Of a stretch of 64,000 nt of DNA, positions 9,013 to 31,386 are shown piece by piece; position 1 is the first letter of the stretch, and every line of letters begins with the position of its first letter. The stretch covers positions 34,240 to 98,239 of the forward strand of contig PEZW01000018.1 in assembly GCA_002773985.1 (NCBI GenBank), in the 5' to 3' direction. The translations under genes and the position numbers were made by a program. The DNA is from Candidatus Berkelbacteria bacterium CG10_big_fil_rev_8_21_14_0_10_43_13. Lineage in GTDB: Bacteria > Patescibacteriota > UBA1384 > XYA2-FULL-43-10 > 1-14-0-10-43-13. Under the pieces are notes generated by a model. That model saw nothing but the letters and a program-made list of their open reading frames with translations. It ran no database searches and was not told the origin of the DNA.

Positions 9013-9022
9013 ATTGAAAATT

Positions 9023-9877
9023 TTATTTTAGTCCAGATATTTTTCTAATCTGAATTAGGCGATTATCAAGCTTCTCTGCCTTAATAAGTAACTCAATTGC
9101 TTTTTCTTTAGTTAGTGATGAAATTTCAGAAATTTTATTCTCGATATAAGCTATCTCTTCTTTCGCCATTCTTGTTAGCGCCACCTGCTCAACTTTTTTA
9201 AATCTACATAATTCTTTATTCGAAATCGAGAGAATTTTACAGATGGAGCTATCAATGGCTTTCCAATATAAGCTAGCATCTTTCTCCCCTTTGAGCTTTT
9301 CTCCTGATAGCCACAATCCCTTGTAGTCTAAGTTACCGCAATTGGGGCTAGACAATATGCAATATAAATGAATATATGAAAACAAAGTAACATTTTTTGC
9401 TGTTGCTTGTCTGTATATTTGACTACTATTTTTTGGGTACTGATACAGCGGCGATACAAGGCAAGCAAAGTCTTTATCTTTTTTCCATTTATCCAATGCT
9501 TCTACTTTAAAATCTTTTTGATTCTTTGCGGTTCTGCTTAATCTAAATAATTTAGCATCAGCGACTATTGTATAGTTTTTTGTTTCACCCTCAACATCTG
9601 CAGAGTCTGCTCTTTCTTTCAAGACTTTTGCGTTTAAACCCATAAATGAAAGCGCCCTCGCTAATAAAACATCAGAATACTTGGAGTATATTTTTTCCTC
9701 AGTCGAATCGTGTGAAAATGACTCAGGAATAATACCGCACTCAAGAAGATGAAGCATAACTTCTTCTTTGGTAAACTTCTCGACTATTGAGATTATCCTT
9801 TCACTATACTCAGTAAAAGAAAGTGGCTCATCAGAAATTTTAGAAATAAAATTTATAATTTCAATTCTTTTCATCAA
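9023..9877 (-). CDS. Type II restriction endonuclease, HindIII-like (PD-(D/E)XK)
   Basis: The block ADVEGET...YTIVADAKLFRLSRTAKNQKDFKVEALDKWKKDKDFACLVSPLYQYPKNSSQIY matches my recollection of the R.HindIII catalytic region (D..D-A-K). It overlaps the C-protein gene by 17 nt, which is characteristic of C-R operons. Confidence 0.6.
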   Translation of the reverse strand: MMKRIEIINFISKISDEPLSFTEYSERIISIVEKFTKEEVMLHLLECGIIPESFSHDSTEEKIYSKYSDVLLARALSFMGLNAKVLKERADSADVEGETKNYTIVADAKLFRLSRTAKNQKDFKVEALDKWKKDKDFACLVSPLYQYPKNSSQIYRQATAKNVTLFSYIHLYCILSSPNCGNLDYKGLWLSGEKLKGEKDASLYWKAIDSSICKILSISNKELCRFKKVEQVALTRMAKEEIAYIENKISEISSLTKEKAIELLIKAEKLDNRLIQIRKISGLK

Positions 9878-15503: not shown

Positions 15504-18500
15504 CTAAAGGCCTGTTTCAGACCACCAAGAATCAAATCAAATATCGAAGCATTTCTTGTCGGAGTCAACAACATATACTTGTCTGATTTTGCAACATTAC
15601 CGGCCTTGTCGTTGGAGAGAAGATAATACTGGTAAACGGTCGATGGCTTCAGATCGACCAAGACAACGGTGTGGTTTTTGACCAGATCAGATGAAAGGGG
15701 TGTAGAAATTACAGTTTTGCTACTCAGACTATTCTCAGCATAAACAACCTGACTATCGGCAGGTTTGTTTGTTTGCCATGTTATCACCGTCTGGACCTTG
15801 TCCTGAGATCCGGAAACAAGTGCGGAGCGGTTTTCAACTTTGGAAATTACCGGCGTATTACCATCGGCAGAAGTTGAAAAATTGTAAGAGCCGCTGCGGA
15901 CGGTATCACCCTTCTCTGTTCTCATGACAATATTGAAGGAATAACGTGAATCGTCCGAAAGATTAGATAAAGCTACCGTGTGAGTTCGCCCCAGATTGTT
16001 ATCCGCGACAGATAACGGCTTGGTGCTCAAATCACTATTGTACTCAACTATGCCGGTCGAGAGAGAAGCAGTGTTCCAACTAATACTGACCTTTGTCGTC
16101 TCTATATTATTGACCGAAACCGAGGAGATTGTGCCGGTCAACATCGTCACATCATAAAGACTCGAACTTGTCATATTGCCGGCAACGTCGGCGGACTGAA
16201 TTTTGTACTCATAGTTTTGGTTTGGCTCTAAGTTTTCAACTGTCACCGTATGTGCTCGTGAGTAGTTTGTGTCACCGGCAGTAGCAAAATCATCATTCGA
16301 ACCAATCAGCCGATACAAAACTGCTCCCGTCGAGCGAGTATCAGTGGTCCAGCTGACTGTAAAACTCTTCTCTGAAAGCGCTATCACTGTCGGACCACTA
16401 CTGGAGATCTTTGGCCCCAGACCGGAAACTGTCAAGGTCGGATCGGCGACAGAATTGATGACAGATTGTGCCGATTCAAAGGTTGTGTCACTGCTTCTTA
16501 CCGTCAAAGTAGTAAATGTCGCATCGGTATTGCTGTTTAAATTACCGGATTCATCGCTGGCGCTGACTAAATAATGATAGGTTGTGTCTGCAGTTAAGCC
16601 GCGAATAACCACTGTCTTGGTCTTGGTATAAGTATTGTTGCCTTCATTGGCACCATAAGTGTAATCAGTGGTGACTCCATACAAAACTCGACCAAGCGAA
16701 TCCTCATTTGATACAAACGTAATTGTCGCACCAGATGAGGTAATATCGGAAACTGTAACACTCGATATCGTCGGTGCCGTCACATCAGCAGTATCGGTAC
16801 CGGCCGAGGCAGTTGTGAAAGTGGAGGTATCGCTTGTTGTCGTGTTGCTACTTGCGTCTGTGCTGGAAACATTAAAGTAATAGGTTGTATTACTTGTCAG
16901 CCCAGACAAGGTCACTGCGTGACCGGTAACCGAAGTGGCCGAAGTTTCAGCCGATCCCAGCGAACCGGTGGCGCCATAGTTGACAACTGAATTGCTCGAC
17001 TCTGTAGTTGACCAAGTTACTCCGGCTGTCGTCAGCCCCACCACCGTGTTTATATTGGAGATGGTCGGTCCGGTTGTATCAGCCGCAGTCGAAAATGTCT
17101 GCGTTTCCGCATCGGTATTGGTCGTCTTGTTATTACTTGCATCATAAGATATTACTCGGAAATAATAAGTCGTATTAGAGGTTAGATTGGCCAAAGTGAC
17201 GGAATGACTAGTTGCCATTGTGGGCACGCCGGTTTCCGTTGCATAATTTGTGTCTGTGGAGTAGCCGACAGTTGAGTTCGACAATTCGTCGGTTGTCCAA
17301 GTGATAACGACCGAGTTCGTCGTTGGCGTGCCGGCAGCGACACTGGAGATTGCCGGGCCGGTGTAGTCACCACCACCGGATCCGTTTGGCATCAAGCCGG
17401 TACCTGATTGTGCGGCCGCAGCCGCGGCACTGCTTGGAGTACTGTAATTTGACTCATTTACATGATTGTCAACGACTGTGAGCTTGTAATAGTATGTTGT
17501 CGCATTATCAAGACTAGTATCTACATAATAATTTGTCAGCCGATTACTCACCTGCGCCAGAGTTGAAAAATTGTTGTTGTCTGTCGAGCGATAAAGCTGG
17601 TAATAATTGAATCCTTCCGTTGGGGTAGTAACAACATCCCAAGAAATAAATAGACGCCAATCAGAGGTTGAGGAATTCGATGTATCTTGTATCAGGACAT
17701 TTGTAGGGTTTTGGGCAGTTGTCGTTGAGACGGTAGCCGCAGTATTACCATACTGATCTTTGTAAGAAACATAAATTGATTCAGTCCGATCCACGGCCGC
17801 GCTTGCAGACCACGATTTTGAGGAAGCGTAAGAAATCCAGTTACCAGAGTCAGTATTATTTACGTCGGCAGACAAATCAGCACTATTAGAAATTTTCATT
17901 GAAACAGAGTTGCCATCAGTCGCAGCAAGAGTTAAAGTGTCGGTACGAGAATTTAAAATCACAGAGGTGCTCGTCGGCGCTTTTGAATCCATTGTCAATG
18001 CGCTAGTTTCGTCACTACTAAATTGATTGGCAGAATTACCATCATTTGCTACAAGTTTGATAGTAGCCGAGCTACTTTCAATCCCAGAAATATCGCTCGA
18101 CAGTGTCCAGGAAATACTTTTGCCAGTTCCAGTAGCGACTGTACCGACATCACCACTGACACCAGCGCTGACGCGGAGATAAATTGCATCAGAAGTCGAG
18201 TGAGACGCTGCTGTTGTACTTAGCTGTGCACGAGACAATCCCGACAATGCTGTACCGGACCGAGAGGTATAGGTGATCATCTCACTGCCAACTAAAATTG
18301 TCCCGCCACCAGTTGGCAAGAAGGTGTAAGCACTGGCATCGTCGGCTGTCAAAGTTGCACTCGTACCGGAAGATGTAATATCACCGCCAAGTATTGCACC
18401 AAATCCAGCAGTTAGATAAATACTGGCAGTGCTCTCCTCAGGATCAGACAAATTGTAATTGATTGTATACACGCCCGCTGATGATTCAGTGGGGGAGTTT

Positions 18501-20497
18501 GAAATCGAGACCGTTGGTGCGGTATTTAAAACATATTGTAGACTTAGATCACTCAGAGTCGGAGTGACACTTGTGTCTGTCGTCGAAAGAAATACTTTGT
18601 ATTTTAGCCATTCATCGTTTGTCCCGTCCGTCTGTGCAGAATTGATCGTTTCACCGCCAGCTGAGTTTGTATAAAAGTCGCCTGTACTAGTCGGTCCGAC
18701 AAAATCACTCCAGACACCTGGTGACCCAGTATCATCAACTGCAGTGCTGATCTGAAACTTAACATCAGTTCCAGCGGGCAAGCTTTCAGTCCAGCTGAGC
18801 TGGTTGAGGACGTCACCAGGATCAGATGAATCGTACGACGAAGAAATTAAAGTGCCGGAGGCCGCATACTGACTATAATTAATAGTAATGTCTGAAAGCA
18901 CAGATGTAGCAGATGGATTTGTTGTAGATAAAAATGCCTTGTATTGAAAATATTGGTTGCCGTTTAGACTAGAATCGATTACTGTACCGCTCGAAGTAAA
19001 ATATGTACCTGAGGTACCATCAGGACCAATAAAGCTCCAGGTTGCGTTATCATTATTGCCGGCAATTTGGAATTTAATCTCAGTATTACTGGGAGCTGTG
19101 GTATTAAAATCCAGATTACCAACAATCACTTTCCCGCTCAAATCGATGCTCTGAGAAATAAAATTACCGGAACTTTCATAGCCCTCAACTTTGTATGCGT
19201 ATAAAACAGGACTATCGGGAACACCAGTCATCCAATAGATATTTCCATTTGTATACACAAAATTACCAGACCAGGCTCGAGTCAACGCTGTCAAATCGGT
19301 TTTAGCTGACCAAGAGTCTCCAGCTACATCATATTGCCAGAAAGTACTTGTTCCATTACCTTTGTTAAAATATAAATAATCACCAGCGTTGACTAAAAAG
19401 GAACCGAGTCTATCGTTTGTCTCTGGAATCACTGCGAGATTTGTAGTCCAAGTCTCAAGAGTCAGATCGTAATATCCGAAGGTTGTATTATCCGAGCTAA
19501 CCTTGGTCGCATAAAGCTTGCCGTTATAGGGTGCAATATTGAAACCTACCCCTGCAGCATTTGAAGGTAGTGATACGCTGACCCAACTATCGGTCGCAAT
19601 TGTATAAACATAAAGAGAAGTTGCTGTACCTTCATATAAATAAATTTTTCCTTGGTAATAAATGCTTTGTAAATTCTGCGCGTAATTAGAGTTGTTACAA
19701 CTCGAACAAGCGGTTAAATCACCCCAAGAATCAGAGCTAATGTCATATTTATAAAAAGTATTGTTGACCAGATTGTACCAATAAATATCTGTACCATCAG
19801 AAGAAAGAGTCCCTTCGTTGGTTGCTGCCGGGGTAGTAGTTTGTGTTGACCATGTCCCCGCATCACTATCATAAGCATAGATATTGCTTGTATTATTATT
19901 TTGGTGTGTATAGATGACATTACCAATATTGGTCAATGTTCCTACACCAGCAGTATCTGCCGGGCCATTTGTCGTTGTCATAGCAGACCATGCGTTTGCC
20001 CCACTAAGGGCGGCTAGTTGGACAACGGCACTATCGCCACTGCCTGAGCTAGCAGTGCCACTATCAGTACCGGCACCAAAATCTGTATCATTTGTTTCCG
20101 TCGCAGAGCCAGCACTACTGGTCAAGGTTAGTTCTGTACCGGCAGTGACATCAGTGGCCGAATAATATTTTGTCCAGCCACTTTGGTTCGAAGTGTGATT
20201 CGCAGTTGAAACAGTATCGGCACCACCAGACCAGTTAGTTTGTAAAAAAATATATGATGTCGCCCTTGCAAAACCAGCTGGAAATAATAATGAGAATGTG
20301 CCTACGATTATAGCTATAAAAGCAGCAGTCAATCCCGTAAGATGAACTTTTTTGTGGTAGGGATGACGATGCCATTTATGATACATTTTGCTTTTACGCA
20401 GTAAAAAATTATGAAGTTTTTGAAAACACAAAAACCGCGCCCGTGAAGGCTCTTTCGTATAATCAAAACCTCTCCTGAGTCGACTGACTCCCCTCAT
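15485..20497 (-). CDS. Giant cell-surface protein (1670 aa; the probable start is an internal Met at 20386). It has an N-terminal membrane anchor, beta-propeller-like repeats and multiple fibronectin-III-like domains.
   Basis: Hydrophobic anchor (LTGLTAAFIAIIVGTFSLLF), Thr/Ser-rich sequence, and repeated YYF(R/N)V.S.DASSN and YHYLVSASDESGN Fn3-like strands. It is co-directional with, and overlaps, the ABC ATPase gene. Confidence 0.7.
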   Translation of the reverse strand: MRGVSRLRRGFDYTKEPSRARFLCFQKLHNFLLRKSKMYHKWHRHPYHKKVHLTGLTAAFIAIIVGTFSLLFPAGFARATSYIFLQTNWSGGADTVSTANHTSNQSGWTKYYSATDVTAGTELTLTSSAGSATETNDTDFGAGTDSGTASSGSGDSAVVQLAALSGANAWSAMTTTNGPADTAGVGTLTNIGNVIYTHQNNNTSNIYAYDSDAGTWSTQTTTPAATNEGTLSSDGTDIYWYNLVNNTFYKYDISSDSWGDLTACSSCNNSNYAQNLQSIYYQGKIYLYEGTATSLYVYTIATDSWVSVSLPSNAAGVGFNIAPYNGKLYATKVSSDNTTFGYYDLTLETWTTNLAVIPETNDRLGSFLVNAGDYLYFNKGNGTSTFWQYDVAGDSWSAKTDLTALTRAWSGNFVYTNGNIYWMTGVPDSPVLYAYKVEGYESSGNFISQSIDLSGKVIVGNLDFNTTAPSNTEIKFQIAGNNDNATWSFIGPDGTSGTYFTSSGTVIDSSLNGNQYFQYKAFLSTTNPSATSVLSDITINYSQYAASGTLISSSYDSSDPGDVLNQLSWTESLPAGTDVKFQISTAVDDTGSPGVWSDFVGPTSTGDFYTNSAGGETINSAQTDGTNDEWLKYKVFLSTTDTSVTPTLSDLSLQYVLNTAPTVSISNSPTESSAGVYTINYNLSDPEESTASIYLTAGFGAILGGDITSSGTSATLTADDASAYTFLPTGGGTILVGSEMITYTSRSGTALSGLSRAQLSTTAASHSTSDAIYLRVSAGVSGDVGTVATGTGKSISWTLSSDISGIESSSATIKLVANDGNSANQFSSDETSALTMDSKAPTSTSVILNSRTDTLTLAATDGNSVSMKISNSADLSADVNNTDSGNWISYASSKSWSASAAVDRTESIYVSYKDQYGNTAATVSTTTAQNPTNVLIQDTSNSSTSDWRLFISWDVVTTPTEGFNYYQLYRSTDNNNFSTLAQVSNRLTNYYVDTSLDNATTYYYKLTVVDNHVNESNYSTPSSAAAAAAQSGTGLMPNGSGGGDYTGPAISSVAAGTPTTNSVVITWTTDELSNSTVGYSTDTNYATETGVPTMATSHSVTLANLTSNTTYYFRVISYDASNNKTTNTDAETQTFSTAADTTGPTISNINTVVGLTTAGVTWSTTESSNSVVNYGATGSLGSAETSATSVTGHAVTLSGLTSNTTYYFNVSSTDASSNTTTSDTSTFTTASAGTDTADVTAPTISSVTVSDITSSGATITFVSNEDSLGRVLYGVTTDYTYGANEGNNTYTKTKTVVIRGLTADTTYHYLVSASDESGNLNSNTDATFTTLTVRSSDTTFESAQSVINSVADPTLTVSGLGPKISSSGPTVIALSEKSFTVSWTTDTRSTGAVLYRLIGSNDDFATAGDTNYSRAHTVTVENLEPNQNYEYKIQSADVAGNMTSSSLYDVTMLTGTISSVSVNNIETTKVSISWNTASLSTGIVEYNSDLSTKPLSVADNNLGRTHTVALSNLSDDSRYSFNIVMRTEKGDTVRSGSYNFSTSADGNTPVISKVENRSALVSGSQDKVQTVITWQTNKPADSQVVYAENSLSSKTVISTPLSSDLVKNHTVVLVDLKPSTVYQYYLLSNDKAGNVAKSDKYMLLTPTRNASIFDLILGGLKQAFSWTKNL

Positions 20498-20622: not shown

Positions 20623-21450
20623 CTATTTCAATTTTTTGTTTTTTTCGACGGCAATCGCGCCATCCGGACAAAAACGAAAACAGTTGCCACAAGCAATGCA
20701 TTTTTCGAGATCAATTTCAGGCACCGGCGTGGCAAAAACACCGAGAGTGTCAGAAAATTTAAGAGCACCGACCGGGCATTTGACGATGCAAATACCACAA
20801 CCTTTGCATCGTTCCGGCAAGATCTGCGCGGTTTTTTCGGCATTTTTTATGATAATTTTACCAGTCGCAGGCTGAAAAGTCGGTCTGGAAAAATCCTTCA
20901 GTTCAAAAATATATTTTCGACCAGAAAGGTATGCCTGGCGACTTTTTTCTTTTATCTCTGGCGTTTTGAATTTTTTGCCGAGCAACTTCTCAATTTTTTG
21001 CCACACTTGATCCTCATCAAGATTAAGGACCCGACTTAGTTTTCCGGCAACAATCAGATTGAAGGCTTTTGGCGTAAATTTTTCTGTTGCAATCTGTGTC
21101 GCCGGAATACCAAAACTGTGAATCGCTTCATCAGGCAAGTCTCTAACTGAGACGGTAGAGGAATCGAAAACAACCTTTGTTTTTTTATTTATATATGCCA
21201 AAACACTCGCAACAGCCCGTTTCTGTAAAATAATGGCGTAATCAGCTGAATCAAAGCGAGGATAATAAATTTTTTCGTGCGACAAAATAATAAATGCGAC
21301 CGAGGGCGTACCGCGTTGTTCGACTCCAAAAACAGGAATGTATGATACATCTAACCCCTGTTCGGCTGCAACTTCCGTAATAACCTTGGCAATTGTCTGA
21401 ATCCCTTGTCCACCTTCACCGGCGAGAATAATTTTAGTCGTATCAATCAT
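20623..21450 (-). CDS. 2-oxoacid:ferredoxin oxidoreductase gamma subunit fused to a delta (2x[4Fe-4S] ferredoxin) domain
   Basis: N-terminal POR gamma-like domain (GEGGQGIQT...) and a C-terminal CKGCGICIVKCP...CIACGNCFRFCP double cluster. Confidence 0.8.
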   Translation of the reverse strand: MIDTTKIILAGEGGQGIQTIAKVITEVAAEQGLDVSYIPVFGVEQRGTPSVAFIILSHEKIYYPRFDSADYAIILQKRAVASVLAYINKKTKVVFDSSTVSVRDLPDEAIHSFGIPATQIATEKFTPKAFNLIVAGKLSRVLNLDEDQVWQKIEKLLGKKFKTPEIKEKSRQAYLSGRKYIFELKDFSRPTFQPATGKIIIKNAEKTAQILPERCKGCGICIVKCPVGALKFSDTLGVFATPVPEIDLEKCIACGNCFRFCPDGAIAVEKNKKLK

Positions 21451-22163
21451 TTTACCTCCCCGATTGGGTATGTTTTTTCCATCTCAAACGCCATATCCAG
21501 ACTGGCTTTGGCGCCCGTCTTCCAGTTGGTCGGACAGATCGATAATACCTCGACCAAGGCAAAATTATTATTTTCTTTTTGAGCCAAAATTGCTTTCTTT
21601 AGAGTTGATAATAAATGGATTGGATTTGTGACCGTCGTTCGGGCGATATATGCATCTTTGTGGGCCACATTGCGAATCAATTCAGGTCCCTTGAAACCAG
21701 CCCCCAACTCGGGTGATTTACCGACAGGCGAAGTCGGAGTGATCGTCCCGGGCAAAGTCGTGTAGGAGGATTGACCTCCCGTCATGGCAAAATTTTCATT
21801 GTTTATCACTATCACAGTGACAGGATTATTTCGATAGGCGGCGTGGATAATATTTTGCAAACCGATACCCCATGCGGCACCATCTCCCATATATGAGATG
21901 ACAATTCGCTTTGGCTTGACTAGTTTGTAGCCGACAAGGAGAGGCGTTGTCCGGCCGTGATGAGTCTGAATCGTCGGAACATCAAGAAAATTCCAAGCCA
22001 GGAGCGAGCAACCGATATCGACACCCATGGTGATCTCTTTTTGTATTCCGAGCCCATCAATGGCAAAACCAAGTTGTTTGAAAGTAATGCCGTGACCACA
22101 ACCCGGGCAAAAAAGATGCGGTTTCAGCTTGACGTTCCAACTTTTGGGTATTGTGCTAAGCAT
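21447..22163 (-). CDS. 2-oxoacid:ferredoxin oxidoreductase beta subunit (TPP-binding)
   Basis: TPP-binding GDG..WGIG motif (MGDGAAWGIGLQ) and the Cys ligands of the proximal cluster (CPGCGHG). Confidence 0.85.
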   Translation of the reverse strand: MLSTIPKSWNVKLKPHLFCPGCGHGITFKQLGFAIDGLGIQKEITMGVDIGCSLLAWNFLDVPTIQTHHGRTTPLLVGYKLVKPKRIVISYMGDGAAWGIGLQNIIHAAYRNNPVTVIVINNENFAMTGGQSSYTTLPGTITPTSPVGKSPELGAGFKGPELIRNVAHKDAYIARTTVTNPIHLLSTLKKAILAQKENNNFALVEVLSICPTNWKTGAKASLDMAFEMEKTYPIGEVK

Positions 22164-23202
22164 TGTGTTTTTTGATCTCCTTTAATATTTCTTCCGGAGT
22201 GAAACCCTCTGCCGGTTTGCTGATCTGACTAATCTTGGCCTTGATGTTATGACCGGCCAATTCCGCCTTGGCAATAGTCCCAAGTTGGCCATATGCTGAT
22301 TCTACGATAAATATGTGTTTGGCACCTCTAGCCACAGTTCGGAGTGCCTCACCGTCAAACGGATTCAGAGTAATCGGACGGAATAATCCAATCCTAATTC
22401 GCTCATGGCGCATTTTCAAAACAGTTTCTTTGGTCGCACTGGCAACAAGTCCGTGAGCGATTACCAGATAGCGAGCATCATTTGTGTGAAATGACTCTGA
22501 TTCAACAATTTTGTTTTTATTTTTCTCCCAGTCTGTGATGTGATTGTTGAGTAAAGTATTGAGCTCCTCCTCTGAACTGAAGCAGTTGCGAAGCCAGGTC
22601 GGCGCGCCTGATTCTGACAAAATTGGTTTGGACTCAACCGGTTTTAGAAGTTTTTTTAGCTCGACTGTCGCCTTCATCTTACCGAGATAACCGTCGCCGA
22701 GTACAAATGTGGGAAAGCGATATTTCCAAGCCGCCGAGAAGGCCTTGATCACCAAACTATACATTTCCTCAACATTCGAAGCCGAATAGACAATTCGAAA
22801 TGAATCACCGTTGCCACCATGGATCGCTAGATTGACTTCTTGTTGAGAAAAATTGACTGTCCCTGTTGATGGACCGCCTCTCTGCATCATAATACCGACG
22901 AAGGGGAGACGCATATTTTCCGCCATCGCGACAGGGTCTTGGAGCAAAACATGACCGATACCGGCAGAGGCCGTAAAGGCTTTTGCCCCTCCTAGTACCG
23001 CACCGAGGACACCAAATCCCGCCGCAATCTCATCCTCAGTTTGTAAATATTGCAAACTTTTATCAGTGACAGTTTGAGCAATCCAGCCTTCAAGAATTTC
23101 AGTTGCCGGAGTGATCGGATAGCCAAACATAATCTTGGCCCCCGCATCGACAGCACCACGCACCGCCGCCTCATTTCCAGTTATAAATATTTTTTCTGCC
23201 AT
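22156..23202 (-). CDS. 2-oxoacid:ferredoxin oxidoreductase alpha subunit
   Basis: POR/KOR alpha N-terminal domain (ITGNEAAVRGAVDAGAKIMFGYPITPATEI). Confidence 0.85.
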   Translation of the reverse strand: MAEKIFITGNEAAVRGAVDAGAKIMFGYPITPATEILEGWIAQTVTDKSLQYLQTEDEIAAGFGVLGAVLGGAKAFTASAGIGHVLLQDPVAMAENMRLPFVGIMMQRGGPSTGTVNFSQQEVNLAIHGGNGDSFRIVYSASNVEEMYSLVIKAFSAAWKYRFPTFVLGDGYLGKMKATVELKKLLKPVESKPILSESGAPTWLRNCFSSEEELNTLLNNHITDWEKNKNKIVESESFHTNDARYLVIAHGLVASATKETVLKMRHERIRIGLFRPITLNPFDGEALRTVARGAKHIFIVESAYGQLGTIAKAELAGHNIKAKISQISKPAEGFTPEEILKEIKKHNA

Positions 23203-23237: not shown

Positions 23238-25241
23238 TTAACTAGTTATAATCCGAACATCCACCATCTCATAGCTGTCGTCAGTCACTATGATCGGATT
23301 GAAATCAACTTCCTTAATGTTTGAATAATTGTCGGCAAATGTCACCGCCTGACAAACAAGTTTCGACAACTTTTCTAAATTATACACCTTCTGTCCACGA
23401 GCACCAGCCAAGATTTTACCTATTTTTGTCGAAAGAATCAGATCAGTCGCCATTTTTTCAGTCAGGGGAGCTATAGCATAGCCGAAATCACCATAAATCT
23501 CAGAATAGATCCCGCCAGTACCAAAGAGGACTGTTGTTCCAACATTGCCATCTTTCTTAATTCCAAGAAGTAGCTCAAATTTACCCTTAATCATCTTGCC
23601 TGCCACCACCGGATAGCCAATTTTTTCTGCGGCCTTGATCAGGTCAGCCTCGCTTTGAATGTTTGTTGCCACTCCGCCTTCGTCCGTCTTGTGAGCAGTT
23701 TTATCAGCAACTTTGACCACGACCGGATAACCAATTTTGAGAGCCGCTTCCACTAATTCAGTTTTGTTCTGAGCCTTGTAGTAAGAAACTACAGGTAGAT
23801 CAAACTTTTTCAAGATAGGTTTCTCATCACCTGAATTGAAAACGTCGATCGCCGCAGTGGTAATTTTGACAGACTCTGACTCCGTCGAAAAATCGACCAG
23901 TGCGCGAATTGCGGTGACAGCTTCTTCTGGATACGAAAAACATGGTTTTGCTGCCTTTTCAATCAATTCCTTGGCAGTAGTAAGAATCTCACCACCGACA
24001 AAAGAAGCTAGTAAGGGCTTTTTACCATTAAAATTAACAACTACCTCAGCAGTGGCGACAATATCAGTCGAAGTCTGTGGTGTCAGAAGTAAGATAATTG
24101 CATCAACATTTTTGTCGGCAGAAATTATGTCTAGGGCCTTTTTGTAATCAATCGCTGTGGCATCGCCGAGCAAATCAACAGGATTTTTGAAACTAGCTTC
24201 AGATCGCATATTAGCTGACAACTTTCTGTTGGTCTCGTCACTAAATTCAGCCAACTCGAGGTGGGAGGCAGAGACGGCGTCAGAAGTTGCAATCGCCGGT
24301 CCGCCGGCATTAGTAATAATTGCTACTTTCTTTCCATTTACCTGTTTGCAACAACTAAATATTCGCGCTTTCAGCAATAAATCTTCTAAGTTGTCAGCCA
24401 AAATGACACCGGTCTGCTCGAGGTAGGTTTTGATCGCGACATAGGAAGTCACGACTGCACCTGTATGTGAGGCAGCCGCTTTGGCGCCCAGAGCACTTTT
24501 GCCACCAAAGAGAATGACCGTTGGCTTCTTTTTGGTATTTTCGTTCAGCAATTCTGTCAGCTCCGGTGTCACTTTTAAGCTCTCAATATAGCCAATAATA
24601 ACTTTAGTTTCTGGATCATCATATAGATATTTGAGAAGATCAACCTCACCAACCAAAGCCTTATTACCCAGTGAAAATATTTTAGAAAAACCGACCTGAG
24701 CTGAGTCAGACAAACTAATCATCGAGGAGATAATTGCTCCGGACTGAGACATGAAGGAAACAGCCCCTTTCTCAGGCATCCCCTTGGCAAAAGTAGCATT
24801 TAGCTTAATCTCAGTATTTATCAAGCCAAGACAGTTTGGCCCGATCAAAGTTACATCGTTTTGACGGCAGAATTTAACAACCTTGTCTTCAAGCTCCTTG
24901 CCCTCGCCGTTGATCTCAGAAAAACCGGCACTGATCACTACCACATTCCTGATATCAGCCGCGACACATTCGGCAAGAGCTGTCATCACAAAATCGCGGG
25001 GGATGACAATAATTGCTAGATTAACTGTCTTCTTTATCTCGGCGACAGACTTGAGAACTTTAAGACCAAGTATTTCGCCCCCCTTGGGATTGATGGGATA
25101 AACCTCACCAGTAAAACCAGCCGACTGGATATTTTGCAGTATCTGAAATCCGACCTTCTGGCTATGAGATGATGCTCCAATAATTGCAATCGATTTTGGC
25201 GAGATAGTTGATTTAATATTACTCATAAACATGATGCTCAA
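23238..25241 (-). CDS. Acetyl-CoA synthetase (ADP-forming), fused alpha and beta domains
   Basis: CoA-binding Rossmann domain (SIAIIGASSHSQKVGFQILQN), ligase-CoA domains and a C-terminal ATP-grasp domain. Length 667 aa. Confidence 0.85.
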   Translation of the reverse strand: MSIMFMSNIKSTISPKSIAIIGASSHSQKVGFQILQNIQSAGFTGEVYPINPKGGEILGLKVLKSVAEIKKTVNLAIIVIPRDFVMTALAECVAADIRNVVVISAGFSEINGEGKELEDKVVKFCRQNDVTLIGPNCLGLINTEIKLNATFAKGMPEKGAVSFMSQSGAIISSMISLSDSAQVGFSKIFSLGNKALVGEVDLLKYLYDDPETKVIIGYIESLKVTPELTELLNENTKKKPTVILFGGKSALGAKAAASHTGAVVTSYVAIKTYLEQTGVILADNLEDLLLKARIFSCCKQVNGKKVAIITNAGGPAIATSDAVSASHLELAEFSDETNRKLSANMRSEASFKNPVDLLGDATAIDYKKALDIISADKNVDAIILLLTPQTSTDIVATAEVVVNFNGKKPLLASFVGGEILTTAKELIEKAAKPCFSYPEEAVTAIRALVDFSTESESVKITTAAIDVFNSGDEKPILKKFDLPVVSYYKAQNKTELVEAALKIGYPVVVKVADKTAHKTDEGGVATNIQSEADLIKAAEKIGYPVVAGKMIKGKFELLLGIKKDGNVGTTVLFGTGGIYSEIYGDFGYAIAPLTEKMATDLILSTKIGKILAGARGQKVYNLEKLSKLVCQAVTFADNYSNIKEVDFNPIIVTDDSYEMVDVRIITS

Positions 25242-25258: not shown

Positions 25259-26713
25259 TTAGTCTCCCGAAAGTAAAATTTTAAGCGCATCAAATACATT
25301 TGTCAAATCTGCCTTCGAATGGACGATTTCTTGCAGAAGTGTCTCACCTGATTTATGTTTTGTTTCAGCCGAGATAATAATAAATGGAAGATGAGACTGT
25401 CTCTGCTTCTCGTTCACCTGCTCAATCTTAGTATCTGCACCACCTTCCGCCCCACCGAAAGCCGAGCAAAAGACCACATAGCCAGAAGCGGCCAAGGCAT
25501 CCTTGACGATGCGACCAAGTGATTTATCCAGTAGTTTGACTTCGGTGACACACTCAGCAAACAAGCCCGCCTGACTAAATCGGTAAAGCGAGGGGAAATT
25601 AACGGTGATAAAGTCACACTGCTTCTGAGCAATCACCTGCAACGCCAGGTCAGTAATTTCCTCAGTAGTGCTGGTTTGCTTTTTTAGATGCGATTCCGAT
25701 CTAACTAGAGGGACTTTAATTTTTACGTGCCCAAGACCATCAAGATAATAGGTGTCTAGATTGTGCAAATTGTCCTGATCTGTCACTAGAGCCTGGTGAA
25801 GTCCTTGTTCATATAAAATGTTGGAAAGATATGACTGCAGATCCTTTTGAAAAAAATAATTAACTTTGGTGCGTAAATCGAATGGAAATTCTGAAATTGC
25901 CCAAAAATCCAAAAATGAAACGGCGCGCGAGGTTTTCTCGTTTGCAGACATAATGATTTCACGCAAAACATCAGTAAGTTGTGGAGAGGGTACAGACAAA
26001 AGAAACGGTAAATCAAAGCTGCTTATTTTGGGATTATGACGCAATTTGATAATAGTCGGGCTCATTTCAGCTGGTGTTTCTGACTTTTGCAATGCCAGCG
26101 CTTGCTTTGCAGACAACGCTGTCTGAGCTTTGCCAGACAAAAGCATTTTTACAATCAAAGCAGTGTTGTGTTTTTTCTTGTTTCCGCAGCCACTCAGACT
26201 AGCGATTTGACCATATTCAATTATTTTTAGACAATCTTCAATGGCAGATAAGCAGACAGCCGCATCTGCTTTTGTCGACACAGAGGAATCAAAGAACAGG
26301 TGAACGAAAAGACCAATAATAGAATTTCTTTTGGCGAACCTAGCTATTTCAGATAAGTTTTCAACTATTTCATCTAGATTATAGTTTGAAACCTGGGCGA
26401 GTATCTGGATTGAAGCGTTGTTTCGCTTTGCCGCATCTAAACTCGAGAGAAACCGCTGATTGTGTGACAGCGATTCCTGTGTCAAACGCACCCTGCTTTT
26501 GTTTGGTTGGCCGGTCGCTATCTCGGTATATCCAGTGTAGCAATCATCGTAAACACCTCTTTTTGATTGCAAAACAAGATGGCGATAGTCCTGCCAATAT
26601 TCTGAAAAAATAGCTGTTTGAGCTGCTGTAATTGCATTTCCCTGCCAGCTTGTGCTCAAGCCAAAACCGTCAGCAATTATTAATACAATAGGTTTTTTTT
26701 CTTTTTGTGTCAT
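25259..26713 (-). CDS. Degenerate paralog of cofactor-independent phosphoglycerate mutase, with catalytic residues lost
   Basis: N-terminal ILIIADGFG resembles iPGM LIILDGWG, but the GNSE(V)GH phosphoserine motif, the ADHGNAE block and the HT..PVP block are all absent. Start set at the internal Met (MTQKEKKP), which gives TAATATG stop-start spacing with gpmI. Confidence 0.55.
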   Translation of the reverse strand: MTQKEKKPIVLIIADGFGLSTSWQGNAITAAQTAIFSEYWQDYRHLVLQSKRGVYDDCYTGYTEIATGQPNKSRVRLTQESLSHNQRFLSSLDAAKRNNASIQILAQVSNYNLDEIVENLSEIARFAKRNSIIGLFVHLFFDSSVSTKADAAVCLSAIEDCLKIIEYGQIASLSGCGNKKKHNTALIVKMLLSGKAQTALSAKQALALQKSETPAEMSPTIIKLRHNPKISSFDLPFLLSVPSPQLTDVLREIIMSANEKTSRAVSFLDFWAISEFPFDLRTKVNYFFQKDLQSYLSNILYEQGLHQALVTDQDNLHNLDTYYLDGLGHVKIKVPLVRSESHLKKQTSTTEEITDLALQVIAQKQCDFITVNFPSLYRFSQAGLFAECVTEVKLLDKSLGRIVKDALAASGYVVFCSAFGGAEGGADTKIEQVNEKQRQSHLPFIIISAETKHKSGETLLQEIVHSKADLTNVFDALKILLSGD

Positions 26714-26714
26714 A

Positions 26715-28322
26715 TTAGTGCAGAACCAATGATTCAGCTTTTGTTTCACTTTTAAAGGGTATCTTCATCAGGTCCAATACTGTCGGGACAATGTTTGACA
26801 GGGAACCTCCACTTTTGAGCTTTGTTTTTGCGATTTGTTGATCGGCACTGACAATGATAAAAGGGACGGGATTTGTTGTGTGCTCTGTATCAGGCTCACC
26901 AGTGCGAGGATTGACCATCTGCTCAGCATTTCCATGATCAGCAAAGACAAAAACTGTGCCATTTTTCTGGAGCACAGTATTTAATATTTCTCCTAGACAC
27001 TTGTCAACAAATTCCACCGCTTTGACGGCGGCTTTCATATTACCAGTGTGCCCGACCATATCAGCGTTGGCAAAATTTACGATAAAAGTATCGTAGATAT
27101 TTTTATTGATTGCCTGTAGCAGTGTGTCTGTGACACCCTGTGCTGACATTTCCGGTTTCAAATCATATGTTGGCACATCGCGAGGGGAAGGAACCATTTT
27201 CCAATCTTCGCCAGGAAATGGCTTTTCACGGCCACCGTTCAGAAAATAAGTAACGTGGGCGTATTTTTCCGTTTCTGCTGTATGATATTGACGAAGATTA
27301 TTGAGCGATAATTGCTCAGCTAAAGGACTCATCACCTGTTGTGGTTCAAAGACATGATTTCCAAGCGTCGTGTCCCCATGCATGACAAAGGAAGCAAAAT
27401 AAAGATTTTTGAGCATCTTTCGGCCTGGCAACTTATCTCTCATGTCTGGTTCCAAAAAAGCATTTGTCAGCTCCCTTGCTCGATCAGCGCGATAATTGAA
27501 AAATACAACGCTGTCGTTGTCAGAGATAAGCTCGGCATGATTGTCTTTATTGATAATCACGCTTGGTTCGATAAATTCGTCGGTCATACCACGAGCATAT
27601 GATTTAGTGAAAATTTCACCGGCAGAACTAAATTTTGTGCCTTTACCTAGAGTCAATAAGTCATACGCCTCAGCGATTCGCTCCCAGCGATTATCGCGAT
27701 CCATCGCATAAAATCGGCCAATTATTGTCGAGATCTGGCCAACTCCGATCTCTCGCATCTGATTTTCAAGCTCCGCCAGTGTCTCAATACCAGTCATCGG
27801 CTCTGAATCACGACCATCAGTAAAAATATGCAAATAGACATTGCTAAAATTCATTTTTTTGCACAATCTCAAAATAGCATAAATATGGGAAATTTGACTG
27901 TGAGTACCAGTCTTTGAGAGAAGTCCCATCAAGTGCAGACGAGCATGGTTCTGCTGAGCTGAGTGGATAGCTCGATTCAAAACCTCATTTTTCTCGAAAC
28001 TGCCGTCTTCAATAAATTTATCAATAATTGATTGATCCTGATAAACCACGTGGCCAGCACCAATGTTTAGGTGTCCAGCCTCAGAATTTCCAGGGGATTC
28101 AGCCGGCAAACCAACCGCAGTTCCAGAAGCCTGGAGTGTTGTGTGCGGACACTTTTTTGTAATAGTGTTGTAGTTCTTTACCTCAGCAATACTGAGAGCA
28201 TTGCCACCCCAAACCGGAGCCACGCCCCAACCGTCTAATATAATCAAACCAAAAATATTCTTCTTTGTATTCGTGCCTAAAACCAAAATCCCTCCAAAAT
28301 CGTTTGCGATTTTGTCCTCCAT
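26715..28322 (-). CDS. gpmI: 2,3-bisphosphoglycerate-independent phosphoglycerate mutase
   Basis: LIILDGWG, GNSEAGHLNIGAGHVVYQD (catalytic Ser), ADHGNAEQM and HTTNPVPFIIV motifs. Length 535 aa. Confidence 0.9.
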   Translation of the reverse strand: MEDKIANDFGGILVLGTNTKKNIFGLIILDGWGVAPVWGGNALSIAEVKNYNTITKKCPHTTLQASGTAVGLPAESPGNSEAGHLNIGAGHVVYQDQSIIDKFIEDGSFEKNEVLNRAIHSAQQNHARLHLMGLLSKTGTHSQISHIYAILRLCKKMNFSNVYLHIFTDGRDSEPMTGIETLAELENQMREIGVGQISTIIGRFYAMDRDNRWERIAEAYDLLTLGKGTKFSSAGEIFTKSYARGMTDEFIEPSVIINKDNHAELISDNDSVVFFNYRADRARELTNAFLEPDMRDKLPGRKMLKNLYFASFVMHGDTTLGNHVFEPQQVMSPLAEQLSLNNLRQYHTAETEKYAHVTYFLNGGREKPFPGEDWKMVPSPRDVPTYDLKPEMSAQGVTDTLLQAINKNIYDTFIVNFANADMVGHTGNMKAAVKAVEFVDKCLGEILNTVLQKNGTVFVFADHGNAEQMVNPRTGEPDTEHTTNPVPFIIVSADQQIAKTKLKSGGSLSNIVPTVLDLMKIPFKSETKAESLVLH

Positions 28323-28625
28323 CTTGTCCCTCGTAGCCCGCAGTGGGCGAAGTGGGAAGCTTTATGCGAAGGAGGACTAGTCATTATTTATGCAATTTCT
28401 TATCCTATTATATTATGCTAGACTGTTTTTAGCAATTGCACACAACAAGCTTAATTCTTAATACTTTATTCTACGCGTTATGTGTAATTATTGTTCGAAG
28501 CTGAAAACTATCAGCTGATAACTTAAAAAGTTTATTAAACTTCTCGCTTCACGCTCGAAGAATAAAAAAACAGTTAAATGTTAATTTAATTGCACATAAC
28601 GCGTTTTATTTTTAATTCTGGTAAT

Positions 28626-29219
28626 ATGAACATCAAAAAACTAACACCTCAAAATTTTGAACAGGTTGTGACTGAAGCCGTAAATATTATCAAATCTGGC
28701 GGTCTTGTCATCGCACCTTTTGATACTGTCTATGGCATCATTTGCGATCCGAAAAATGACGAGGCTGTCAAAAAGATTTTTGATCTGAAGAAAAGACCAC
28801 TCGACAAAACTATTGGCCTGGCCGTCACTTCAATTCCAGCACTAGAATTGATTGCGGAAAACACTCATCCAGATTTTATAAAATCTCATATTTTCGGTCC
28901 GTATACATTTATATTGAAATCAAAGAAAAATAATGGCATTTCCAAATATTGCCAAAAAGAGGGGACTGTCGCAGTTAGAATTCCAAATTCGGAGCTAATT
29001 CTGACAATTGCTAAAAAGTCAGATTATATCCTCGCTCAAACCTCAGCCAATCTCACCGGCAAGCCAACATCTGCCTCGGTCGAAGAAATAACTGCCCAAT
29101 TTGAACCAAAAGTGTTGGACGCAATCGGATTAATTATCGACGGCGGCAATATCAAAAACCCCTCTCCATCACAAATTTTCGATCTAACAGGCGACAAGCC
29201 GATTGAGATTGCGAGATAA
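28626..29219 (+). CDS. tsaC: L-threonylcarbamoyladenylate synthase (TsaC/YrdC family). Start taken at MNIKK.
   Basis: YrdC fold signature (GGLVIAPFDTVYGIICD...LKKRPLDKTIGLAV). The ORF-track start at 28590 lies inside an 18-bp inverted repeat, so the internal Met is preferred. Confidence 0.8.
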   Translation: MNIKKLTPQNFEQVVTEAVNIIKSGGLVIAPFDTVYGIICDPKNDEAVKKIFDLKKRPLDKTIGLAVTSIPALELIAENTHPDFIKSHIFGPYTFILKSKKNNGISKYCQKEGTVAVRIPNSELILTIAKKSDYILAQTSANLTGKPTSASVEEITAQFEPKVLDAIGLIIDGGNIKNPSPSQIFDLTGDKPIEIAR

Positions 29220-29245: not shown

Positions 29246-29288
29246 GCCGAAGTGCCTGCCTGCCGGCAGGCAGGGCGGAATTGGTATA
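29246..29288 (+). pseudogene. 5' part of a second tRNA-Leu(CAA)-like gene (acceptor plus D arm), interrupted by a 20-bp perfect palindrome (29255-29274)
   Basis: With the palindrome removed, the sequence is GCCGAAGTGGCGGAATTGGTATA, against GCCGCGGTGGCGGAATTGGTATA in the intact tRNA-Leu (21/23 identical). Confidence 0.5.
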
Positions 29289-29299
29289 ACCTATTATAT

Positions 29300-29539
29300 A
29301 TGTATTTTGTCTATGTATTAAAAAGTACAAAAAGGAATTATCATTATATTGGTATTAGCAATAATTTATCTCGAAGAATAAATCAACACAACAAGGGTTA
29401 CAACAAAACAACTAAGCCTTACACACCTTTTAAATTAATTTACAGTGAAAAGTACCCTGACCGTGTCTCAGCCAGAACTAGAGAAAAACAATTAAAAAGT
29501 GGTTGCGGTCGTGAATTTATTCGAAAAATAGATATTTAA
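29300..29539 (+). CDS. GIY-YIG nuclease-domain protein (about 80 aa, UPF0213/Slx1-like)
   Basis: MYFVYVLKSTKRNYHYIGISNNLSRRINQHN matches the GIY-(10-11)-YIG motif plus the conserved Arg and Asn. The ORF-track upstream extension (from 29252) runs through the palindrome and is unlikely to be coding. Confidence 0.7.
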   Translation: MYFVYVLKSTKRNYHYIGISNNLSRRINQHNKGYNKTTKPYTPFKLIYSEKYPDRVSARTREKQLKSGCGREFIRKIDI

Positions 29540-29569
29540 ATAATTTGATTAGCGTCTTGTTCATTTTGG

Positions 29570-29655
29570 GCCGCGGTGGCGGAATTGGTATACGCGTACG
29601 ACTCAAAATCGTATTCCCTCAAGGAATGTGGGTTCGATTCCCACCCGCGGCACCA
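29570..29655 (+). tRNA. tRNA-Leu (anticodon CAA), long variable arm, CCA encoded
   Basis: Hand fold: acceptor GCCGCGG/CCGCGGC, anticodon stem TACGA/TCGTA with loop CUCAAAA, variable hairpin TTCC-CTCA-AGGAA, T arm GTGGG-TTCGATT-CCCAC. Confidence 0.9.
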
Positions 29656-29670
29656 AATGAATAAGAATCG

Positions 29671-29769
29671 CACGACCTGTCTGCCGACAGGCAGGCTCAA
29701 AATCGTGTGGCCTCGTGCCTTATGGGTCTGCCTGTCGGTAGACAGGTTCAAATCCCACCTTCGGTACCA
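29671..29769 (+). pseudogene. 3' part of the split tRNA-Leu(CAA)-like gene (anticodon arm, variable arm, T arm, acceptor 3', CCA), carrying two 20-bp palindrome insertions (29676-29695 and 29727-29746)
   Basis: With the palindromes removed, the sequence is CACGA-CTCAAAA-TCGTG ... TGGG-TTCAAAT-CCCA-CCTTCGGT-A-CCA. The acceptor 3' strand CTTCGGT is complementary to the 5' fragment GCCGAAG, including compensatory changes relative to the intact gene. Confidence 0.5.
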
Positions 29770-29770
29770 A

Positions 29771-29800
29771 AAAAAACAGCTTAATTGCTGTTTTTTATTT
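29771..29800 (+). terminator. Intrinsic terminator (AACAGC-ttaatt-GCTGTT followed by a T-run)
   Basis: Hairpin 29775-29792 followed by TTTTTTATTT. Confidence 0.6.
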
Positions 29801-29864
29801 ATCCAATTTTGTTGATGGGCGGAAGGTTTCTGGCACACGGCCCGAAACCTTCCGCCCCGACACT

Positions 29865-30230
29865 TCAGGGCGACTCCTTGTCGCCCTGCAACTTCTTTGT
29901 CTCCTTCGAGGCCTGTTGTTCCGCGACGATCTTCATTCGCGGGCTATCCTTCACAGCCTCAGCCTCCGCAGCCTGTTGCTCAGCAACGATCCGCATCCGC
30001 AGACTATCGCTGAGATCAGCCGCATTACTCTCCTCACCGGCACGTTGTTCGGCGACGACCTCCGCCGCCGACATGTTCGGCTCCGGATCGGGCCGAACCG
30101 ACTCGCTTGGCTGCACCGCCACAGACTGTGCAGGTTTGTAGCCGTAGTCGTCGACTTTGTGGCAACCGACGAGAATTGAAAACCCGAGGGATGCCACCAC
30201 AATTGCCAACACATCGGAAAACTCTTCCAC
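29865..30230 (-). CDS. Putative lipoprotein with internal repeats, GC-rich
   Basis: Signal peptide with lipobox (SILVGC) and a tandem R/K-M-R/K-IVAEQQA motif. The GC content is clearly above the local background. Confidence 0.5.
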   Translation of the reverse strand: MEEFSDVLAIVVASLGFSILVGCHKVDDYGYKPAQSVAVQPSESVRPDPEPNMSAAEVVAEQRAGEESNAADLSDSLRMRIVAEQQAAEAEAVKDSPRMKIVAEQQASKETKKLQGDKESP

Positions 30231-30296
30231 TGTATGACTCCCTTTCCCTTGACATGTTTATAACATTTTTGACTGTGTGTGTCAACATTTTTGGGA

Positions 30297-30490
30297 GTAA
30301 CTGCTCACCCATCTTTTCATTTCGACCCCGTGAGCTCTGTCGAACGGTCGGAGAAATCTGACACGAAGTGTCATTCCCTCGGCTAGCTCGGGACAGGCTC
30401 TGAGCTTGTCGAAGGATCTTTTCAAGAAACAAGATCTCTCCACCCTCGACGAACCGAGGAGTCGAGATGACAATATGAAGTGAGTTAGTA
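30297..30490. repeat. MITE-like palindromic element (GTAACTGCTCA terminal repeats, GTCATTCC subterminal)
   Basis: Begins GTAACTGCTCACCC and ends GTGAGTTAGTAATTAC. It shares its termini and the GTCATTCCCTCGGC core with the copies at 42539, 48641 and 50041. Confidence 0.4.
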
Positions 30491-30633
30491 ATTACTTTTC
30501 TCTGAGAACACAAAAAAAACCGGCATCCGAATGGACAACCGATTACATTATTTTCTTTTTAATTTTGCTGTGTCGGCGAGGGTCCCCCGAAGGGTACCCC
30601 CGCCGACGAGCTTTCATCACGACGCCACTCCTG

Positions 30634-31089
30634 TTATTTCTCCGCCGCCACGGGGCGGAGAGAGGCGGCCATCTCCTTGGCCGCTTCCTCCGCTGTCGGG
30701 ACCCTCTGCACCAGAGGTGACGAAGGGTCGACCGCCGAATCAACCGGCAACAGCAAGCTGTCACCGGAGGACAGCTGGCCGTTGCTCGACGACCGCCTGT
30801 TAATGCGGTCGAGCTCAGCCTCCCAGTGCCGCTTGTCAGCGCCTTTCGGCGCAAACAAAGTGGCGATCGAGTGATACGTGTCGCCGTCCTGGACGGCGTA
30901 GTACCATCGCGTCGGCTCAGCAACAGCGGCACGGACCGCTACCGCACGCCGATTGCCATCATCGACGGCGCGGGTGATGAACGCCGCCGCGATGGCAACG
31001 ATCACGATCACTAGTACCAGCCACGCCGCAACCTCTTTCAAGGTCATCGGCTCGGCCGGTCGATCAAACGCTTTCACGTTTTTGCCCAT
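30634..31089 (-). CDS. LysM-domain membrane protein (start probably MGKNVK; the ORF track extends to 31164), GC-rich
   Basis: TM helix (WLVLVIVIVAIAAAFI) followed by a LysM-like block YYAVQDGDTYHSIATLF...GQLSSGDSLLLP. Confidence 0.55.
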   Translation of the reverse strand: MGKNVKAFDRPAEPMTLKEVAAWLVLVIVIVAIAAAFITRAVDDGNRRAVAVRAAVAEPTRWYYAVQDGDTYHSIATLFAPKGADKRHWEAELDRINRRSSSNGQLSSGDSLLLPVDSAVDPSSPLVQRVPTAEEAAKEMAASLRPVAAEK

Positions 31090-31386
31090 CTTCAGGGCTC
31101 CTTTTTCGGGCAGGATTGGCAGAATTGCCAAAATTATACTAACAGATTTGATAGTATTTGTCAATATATAAGCACAAAATTATGTTCAATTTAGTATTTT
31201 GTCAGACCCAAACTGTATAAACACCGGAATTCGCGCCATTTTCTAGTCGAAAGCTTTAGTCTTTTAGCCATCTTTTCAGCTTTATCTCAGCCAATATGGT
31301 ATAATATCAACGTAGATCCAAGTTCACAGTACCGAGTACCGAGCGCCCCCTAATACGTTATACGAGATACCTAATACGAAATTTGT

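Follow-up and report, generated by a model that had tools for sequence, protein, structure and literature searches.

The gpmI gene and its degenerate paralog

The stretch of DNA considered here (the window, 64,000 nucleotides of contig PEZW01000018.1) comes from a Candidatus Berkelbacteria metagenome-assembled genome (MAG) of the CG10_big_fil_rev series, and its minus strand carries two adjacent genes of the cofactor-independent phosphoglycerate mutase (iPGM) family: gpmI (26715..28322), encoding an active iPGM of 535 aa, and directly downstream a degenerate paralog (25259..26713), a predicted pseudoenzyme of 484 aa counted from its ATG. Berkelbacteria are a candidate phylum and have been placed by Jaffe et al. 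among the deep lineages of the candidate phyla radiation (CPR) (PMC7304191). The gpmI product scores 600.7 bits against TIGR01307 (cutoff 330.65) and has 16/16 catalytic residues. The paralog, named hypothetical protein COT78_02715 at NCBI with a model length of 484 aa, is homologous to it over the full length, with 23% identity end to end and an E-value of 2e-22 by BLASTP. A preliminary description of the window had set a 484-aa, full-length iPGM relative beside a 535-aa gpmI, and both the lengths and the end-to-end homology were borne out; it had also reported the iPGM N-terminus in the paralog, where the motif is indeed present, but the exact string is VLIIADGFG and not the ILIIADGFG that was given (N-terminus KKPIVLIIADGFGLS).

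The two genes are separated by a single nucleotide. The gpmI stop codon occupies 26715-26717 and the start codon of the paralog 26711-26713, forming a TAAtATG junction (26711..26717, minus strand) that reads CTG CAC TAA T ATG ACA on the coding strand, from which the TAATATG spacing noted previously could be read directly. A longer paralog reading frame starting at a GTG and reaching 26749 was rejected, since the N-termini of the homologues and the 484-aa NCBI model favour the ATG. No AGGAGG-like Shine-Dalgarno motif was seen upstream of the paralog starts in the window and in the sister junctions inspected, and no terminator-like site was found in the window between gpmI and the paralog. Starts that lack a Shine-Dalgarno-like motif are compatible with coupling of the two genes by termination and reinitiation of translation.

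We mapped 16 active-site residues in the G. stearothermophilus numbering of the 1EJJ literature, and all 16 positions were independently invariant in 30 diverse true iPGMs. The gpmI of the window and five sister gpmI genes, all six that were tested, retain the complete set, whereas the paralog and its 10 close homologues (11 of 11) keep one residue, Asp12. Among the Mn2+ ligands (D12, S62, D403, H407, D444, H445 and H462), D12 alone is left and the six others are replaced in all 11 proteins. None of the eight substrate-binding residues H123, R153, D154, R185, R191, R261, R264 and K336 is kept in the window paralog, and these positions vary across the degenerate clade, except for K336, which is Asn throughout the core family. 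The loop of the Ser62 nucleophile (GNSEVGH) has undergone a 7-residue deletion in the paralog according to hhalign, and the Ser62 position is Pro in most members and Cys in the window copy alone. Of 44 columns that are invariant in true iPGMs, a count that does not depend on this numbering, the paralog keeps 13, mostly structural Gly, Pro, Asp and Asn; with 1/16 active-site residues and 13/44 invariant positions retained, the catalytic degeneration first noted from the sequence is confirmed.

The same picture emerges from the motifs. The gpmI product contains GNSEAGH (78-84), ADHGNAE (461-467) and HTTNPVP (481-487), and the counterparts in the paralog are a shortened loop around DDCYTGY, SAFGGAE and QRQSHLP, respectively; further replacements from gpmI to the paralog are TDGRD to FDSSV, ETEKYAH to TDQDNLH and NADMVGHTG to PSLYRFSQAG. 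The pairwise alignment and hhalign thus agree with the preliminary description that the phosphoserine motif and the ADHGNAE and HTxxPVP blocks are missing from the paralog and present in gpmI. Catalytic residues at shifted positions, which would have contradicted it, were looked for by profile-profile alignment and by a fold search with the predicted structure, and none were found: hhalign matched the homologue profile to the profile of the 30 true iPGMs with a probability of 100% (E-value 5.5e-45) over 452 columns, with no register shift. Two residues were considered as substitutes and rejected. One is a Cys at or beside the Ser62 position, a possible nucleophile, which occurs in the window copy alone and which hhalign does not place opposite Ser62; the other is the His of SHLPF near the H462 position, a possible ligand, which is not conserved among the homologues. 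At the former metal site the core family carries Pro, Tyr, Asn, Tyr and Phe, all of them conserved, and the positions of the former substrate Arg residues vary; we read this replacement as metal-free stabilization of the fold and not as a new catalytic centre. Since the Ser loop, six of the seven Mn2+ ligands and all of the substrate Arg, Lys and His residues are gone, the alignments show the paralog to be incapable, as judged from its residues, of metal-dependent phosphoglycerate mutase or phosphatase action.

The overall fold has nevertheless been kept. The paralog passes the Pfam gathering thresholds weakly for PF01676 (41.4 bits, gathering 24.3) and PF06415 (29.4 bits, gathering 27), but it does not reach the equivalog level of the NCBIfam models, with 92.9 bits against the cutoff of 330.65 for TIGR01307 and 61.1 bits against 862 for NF003897. 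The Pfam and NCBIfam scans gave no match to any other family and no added domain. A profile of the 11 closest homologues matches the structures of the G. stearothermophilus iPGM (PDB 1o99 at an E-value of 5e-40). The AlphaFold2 (AF2) model of the paralog has a mean predicted local distance difference test score (pLDDT) of 81.9 and a predicted template modelling (TM) score of 0.78, and in a Foldseek search of this model against the PDB the best 22 matches were all iPGM, with E-values of 1e-25 to 4e-22 and TM scores of up to 0.71, those to 1ejj/1o98/1o99 having E-values of about 1e-25 and TM scores of 0.66-0.71; phosphopentomutase and alkaline phosphatases ranked far below. A clade member only 26% identical to the window paralog (P0165) was likewise modelled with a pLDDT of 82.5 and matched the iPGM fold at an E-value of 7e-31. 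The predicted structures therefore show that the paralog keeps the two-domain iPGM fold, an alkaline phosphatase (AlkP)-like phosphatase domain with an inserted transferase domain, and by fold and Pfam domains it is a member of the iPGM/alkaline-phosphatase superfamily.

Conservation and divergence of the pair

The pair was followed in 13 loci outside the window (L001-L007, L009, L011-L014 and the P0040 locus), drawn from the core family and four widely divergent sub-families. L002 has no upstream DNA and is uninformative, L014 is a fragment and the P0040 locus comes without DNA; L012 lies on a 460-kb contig of a Patescibacteria group bacterium, and L007 and L009 are of the P0020 type, from Berkelbacteria. 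The pair noticed in the window proved to be conserved in these related genomes: in every informative locus the degenerate gene lies directly 3' of an intact gpmI on the same strand. Nine sister loci have gaps between stop and start of -17, -11, -8, -4, -4, -4, +1, +2 and +3 nt, compared with +1 nt in the window, and the exception among the 10 sister junctions is L001, with +221 nt. We rejected the idea that gpmI and the paralog are fused by a programmed frameshift or by read-through, as the junctions vary from -17 to +221 nt and lie in different frames. As a control, we inspected 80 generic iPGM loci from metagenomes, mostly unrelated iPGMs 42-50% identical to the window gpmI; among the 56 of these with at least 1.4 kb downstream, no degenerate copy was found downstream of gpmI except in L014, whose gpmI comes closest to the window gpmI within the control set (55% identity).

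The surrounding gene order consists of a divergent Sua5/YrdC gene, then pgi (often), gpmI, the paralog, acd and three 2-oxoacid:ferredoxin oxidoreductase subunits (porABG). In the window, acd (23238..25241, minus strand), for an ADP-forming acetyl-CoA synthetase (ACD; Pfam CoA_binding, Succ_CoA_lig and ATP-grasp_5), starts 17 nt past the paralog stop and is syntenic in L001, L003, L005, L007, L009, L013 and the P0040 locus. It is followed by the three oxidoreductase (POR) genes (20623..23202, minus strand; Pfam POR_N, TPP_enzyme_C and POR gamma with Fer4), which overlap or lie 35 nt apart and are also syntenic in sister loci. Sua5/YrdC (28590..29219, plus strand; PF01300, E-value 3.7e-40) is divergent from gpmI and forms the conserved upstream edge of the locus, occupying the equivalent place in L001, L003, L006, L007, L009, L011, L012, L013 and the P0040 locus. 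In most sister loci pgi (bact-PGI_C) is located between Sua5 and gpmI, but it is missing from the window (28323-28589), L006, L011 and the P0040 locus; downstream of the pair, L004 lacks acd, and L012 lacks both acd and por. Since the pair persists though pgi, acd and por come and go, gpmI is the constant neighbour of the paralog, which, going by gene order, sits in a conserved central-carbon operon-like block. A consensus scan, which is not functional evidence, placed a promoter-like TTGCTA-17-TATAAT upstream of gpmI (28407..28435, minus strand) as a candidate operon promoter. The same scan found a sigma-70-like, near-consensus TTGACA-17-TAAAAT (11/12) within the terminal part of the paralog gene, just ahead of the acd start codon (25278..25306, minus strand), which may be an internal promoter for acd-por.

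A word-indexed protein search returned 10 relatives of the paralog at 34-51% identity, followed by a drop to true iPGMs. An exhaustive profile search over 1.84 billion representatives gave nine core-family representatives above 435 bits and then a continuum from 288 to 134 bits, into which true iPGMs also fall, as they score about 135-160 bits with the core-family profile. Among the best 150 representatives, 81 sequences keep 0-4 of the 16 active-site residues, and the degenerate clade amounts to about 75 representative clusters (50% identity) among the best 150 that were mapped. In a crude neighbour-joining tree, which is open to long-branch attraction, nearly all degenerate proteins group together and are separated from the true iPGMs, with five outliers among true or partly degenerate iPGMs. 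The named members are from Candidatus Berkelbacteria (P0001, P0023 and P0165), a 'Patescibacteria group bacterium' (P0043) and 'bacterium ADurb.Bin400' (P0057), and one further member lies on a 5-kb contig of an 'Actinobacteria' MAG that is probably mis-binned. A search for which 59 distant degenerate proteins were aligned as the query had the P0020 sub-family (Berkelbacteria) among the matches listed, and a scan of GTDB species genomes with the family alignment yielded 87 pattern matches, 0 of which were confirmed by tblastn.

Across the degenerate clade, open frames of 480-530 codons are kept, and intact full-length frames occur in independent assemblies (NCBI, JGI, ENA and Logan), in lineages whose gpmI products are only 54-60% identical. 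L007 and L009 form the only moderately close pair of loci with DNA, and between them the paralog is 55% identical in amino acids with a nonsynonymous divergence (dN) of 0.379, compared with 90% and 0.061 for gpmI, 57% and 0.372 for Sua5, and 91-97% and 0.02-0.05 for acd, porA and porB. The synonymous divergence (dS) is saturated for pgi, gpmI and the paralog, 3.9 for Sua5 and about 0.7-1.35 for acd, porA and porB. From the paralog dN of 0.379 and a neighbour dS of at least about 1.05 (acd, porA and porB by the NG86 method), dN/dS of the paralog is at most about 0.36, as an upper bound, and its dN is about equal to that of Sua5, a genuine enzyme of these genomes. In a comparison of 11 matched loci, divergence of the paralog is ~3x (2.3-6.6x) faster than that of the neighbouring gpmI, with a mean identity of 29% against 61%. 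The pairwise identity matrices of the two proteins have the same nearest neighbours and correlated distances (Spearman 0.65), and thus fit a single old duplication after which both copies were inherited together. The duplication did not happen locally but is ancient and shared by the whole lineage, and the paralog is one member of a clade that is large and evolves fast.

Conservation across the clade is almost confined to structural residues, which true iPGMs conserve as well, with the exception of an N-terminal block (16-45; G-x-G-L-S-x-x-W-x-G-N-A...F...W...H) that is better conserved in the clade than in true iPGMs. The paralog is also more basic than the flanking gpmI product in 9/11 matched loci (isoelectric points of 5.7-9.1 and 5.35-6.66, respectively), which is a weak trend. 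The open frames maintained across this divergence and the bound on dN/dS indicate a selected gene and not a relic, and the substitution pattern is one of relaxed but real purifying selection. Taken together, the lost catalytic residues and the conserved gene pair support the initial view of a pseudo-enzyme or neofunctionalised duplicate, and the paralog is, with high confidence, a selected pseudoenzyme that does not act as a phosphoglycerate mutase.

Possible roles of the paralog

CPR/Patescibacteria genomes are ~1 Mb in size and have shed most dispensable genes, so that retention of the paralog implies a function; a 1.5-kb dead glycolytic gene kept phylum-wide in a core energy operon implies a role in CPR central carbon metabolism that has gone unrecognised. 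The paralog is an ancient tandem duplicate of gpmI, kept across Candidatus Berkelbacteria and related Patescibacteria, and in the explanation that we favour it would be co-produced with the iPGM by translational coupling. It could then serve as a non-catalytic partner of the iPGM, or of the module leading from lower glycolysis to acetate, and might stabilize or regulate the enzyme or act as its scaffold, much as the 'prozymes' of trypanosomatids act on their active twins. By analogy with such systems, a non-catalytic partner or regulator of GpmI or of the adjacent fermentative module, whose effect is exerted through the iPGM or the module, is a plausible but tentative assignment. The narrower version, in which the paralog would be an obligate or regulatory subunit and the pair the first heteromeric cofactor-independent phosphoglycerate mutase with a 'prozyme'-type switch, is also drawn from analogy and we regard it as rather unlikely; if true, the switch would set the flux at the 3-phosphoglycerate/2-phosphoglycerate (3PG/2PG) node, or the Mn dependence of this step, in ultra-small CPR acetate fermenters that use POR and ACD.

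Several observations weigh against a partnership with GpmI. Adjacency is the default for tandem duplicates and is on its own weak evidence of a functional link. Bacterial iPGMs are generally monomers, and a heteromer would then have had no obvious homomeric interface in the ancestor to build on. The flanking gpmI looks self-sufficient, with a complete catalytic set and 54-90% identity between lineages, and the paralog, evolving at about three times its rate (2.3-6.6x), conserves almost solely the structural residues shared with iPGMs; in the clade-wide conservation analysis neither an interaction surface nor a ligand site stood out clearly as conserved. In addition, the 221-nt gap in L001 and the promoter-like site in the 3' end of the paralog suggest that the operon may be more modular than supposed.

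The alternative that survives best, and that we consider a real but doubtful possibility, is a neofunctionalised non-catalytic protein whose role is unrelated to iPGM (a metabolite binder, a scaffold or a protein with some other partner) and which lies beside gpmI by birth and convenient co-expression. The former metal site of the core family, in which Asp12 is kept and His66 has become Tyr, Lys336 Asn and His445 Phe, could represent a remodelled pocket, and other sub-families show E..FY..R..NHK-type patterns at this site; the well-conserved N-terminal block 16-45 and the more basic character of the paralog in 9/11 loci point in the same direction, and the fast evolution is compatible with a lineage-specific function. 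However, clade-wide conservation does not extend beyond the shared structural core, and the paralog has acquired neither an added domain nor a match to another Pfam or NCBIfam family. Moreover, the tight overlap of stop and start with gpmI has been kept over deep divergence while pgi, acd and por vary.

It is improbable that the paralog is a new enzyme with a different, metal-independent active site on the iPGM scaffold. The core family does have invariant polar residues that could furnish one, e.g. D15, H45, Y62, D93, K96, R97, N98 and K128, together with H138, E159, Q204, D234, D312, N315 and E391, and a change of reaction within the iPGM/AlkP fold is known, e.g. in the PhpG family (NF038358, among the NCBIfam matches of gpmI). 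Most of these residues, though, are shared with true iPGMs or variable in the wider clade, no candidate catalytic constellation exists clade-wide, the Arg and Lys residues of the substrate cleft have been replaced by variable ones, and the nucleophile loop is shortened by the 7-residue deletion. A very divergent yet active phosphoglycerate mutase or phosphatase isozyme is very improbable: both iPGM Pfam domains score above their gathering thresholds and IMG labels several clade members as iPGM, but 15/16 active-site residues are lost with no compensating shifted residues in the profile-profile alignment, the scores are far under the TIGR01307 and NF003897 cutoffs, and an intact gpmI always adjoins. 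That the gene is a pseudogene in decay, or an artefact of assembly or annotation, as the fast substitution rate and the saturated dS of the sole measurable pair might suggest, can be dismissed almost entirely in view of the intact frames in independent assemblies across distant lineages, a dN/dS of at most about 0.36 and the confident AF2 models of two members that are only 26% identical.

Compared with iPGM/GpmI itself (TIGR01307; PF01676 and PF06415; PDB 1EJJ/1O98), the paralog shares the two-domain architecture, is of similar length and is homologous from end to end, but it lacks the Ser62 loop, 6/7 metal ligands and all substrate-binding residues, scores below the cutoff and evolves ~3x faster. 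On these sequence criteria it fails every catalytic test of an iPGM (EC 5.4.2.12) as well as the equivalog cutoff, and it should not be filed as GpmI. Dead paralogs that regulate an enzyme have precedents. Bacterial HisZ is a dead paralog of HisRS that regulates HisG. Prozymes, too, are paralogs without catalytic activity through which an active twin is regulated, one example being the prozyme of S-adenosylmethionine decarboxylase (AdoMetDC) in T. brucei (PMC5201418). The Berkelbacteria paralog resembles these in being a duplicate of an active enzyme that has lost its catalytic residues, is under purifying selection and is encoded together with the active enzyme. It differs in that the active gpmI shows no sign of depending on a partner, and iPGMs are not known to need one.

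Protein control of the 3PG/2PG step has itself been described in cyanobacteria, where PirC binds and regulates iPGM, and this offers a precedent for a dedicated protein acting on this step (10.1101/2024.10.28.619893). PirC is small, unrelated to iPGM and PII-controlled, whereas the candidate in Berkelbacteria, a CPR lineage, has the full size of an iPGM and is homologous to it. Tandem iPGM genes in bacteria also exist with both copies intact, in two low-GC (0.34-0.35) metagenome contigs of the control set, L088 (2930-6105) and L023 (2501-5742), where the genes overlap by 7-25 nt and both copies, 44-46% identical, have 16/16 catalytic residues. These pairs, like the rare paralogs reported by Foster et al. 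2010 (PMC2964296), are similar to the Berkelbacteria pair in being tandem iPGMs, but in Berkelbacteria one copy has degenerated completely and identity is down to about 20%; the L088 and L023 pairs could be an 'undegenerated' counterpart of the Berkelbacteria pair or an independent duplication. That systematic survey of bacterial phosphoglycerate mutases found iPGM paralogs to be rare and tied to larger genomes (PMC2964296), and a paralog in a tiny CPR genome is the opposite case.

A literature search returned no description of a dead iPGM paralog, and no NCBIfam model among the curated families covers the degenerate protein. The fold family and the principle of pseudoenzymes were already known; what is new is a pseudoenzyme branch of the iPGM family as a clean, lineage-wide case. 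It adds a bacterial, glycolytic example from the alkaline-phosphatase superfamily to the known pseudoenzymes, and the hypothesis that it binds or regulates GpmI is directly testable. Some pipelines label members of the degenerate clade as iPGM (the entries examined were P0020, P0161, P0018, P0028, P0049 and P0057), which is likely to be a systematic misannotation in CPR metabolic reconstructions, and such mislabelling inflates or distorts them.

Minor observations in the window and related loci

Some other representatives recovered by the profile search (P0055, P0069, P0081, P0133, P0135, P0127 and P0158) keep the metal ligands of the phosphatase domain (K-D-H-D-H-H) and have several substrate residues of the transferase domain changed; going by these substitutions, they may be enzymes of the iPGM fold that act on another substrate. 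In L004, ~4 kb from the gpmI pair, a His_Phos_1 gene (8481-9179, minus strand) of the cofactor-dependent phosphoglycerate mutase (dPGM) superfamily may, by its family assignment, provide a second, non-homologous protein of phosphoglycerate mutase type in that genome. After the por genes, the window encodes a giant protein of 1670 aa (15485-20497, minus strand), and L001 has a syntenic 1685-aa protein (12175 onward) with Pfam matches of fn3/Ig type.

On the other side of the locus, the region 29252-31200 of the window contains a small GIY-YIG gene (29252..29539, plus strand), a tRNA-Leu(caa) gene (29570-29655) and then a GC-rich patch, with a GC content of 0.51-0.61 compared with about 0.41 nearby and reading frames that overlap in several frames. 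One of these, a 176-aa frame (30634..31164, minus strand), has the look of a LysM-type membrane protein and no Pfam match. The patch beside the tRNA-Leu may be foreign or integrated DNA.

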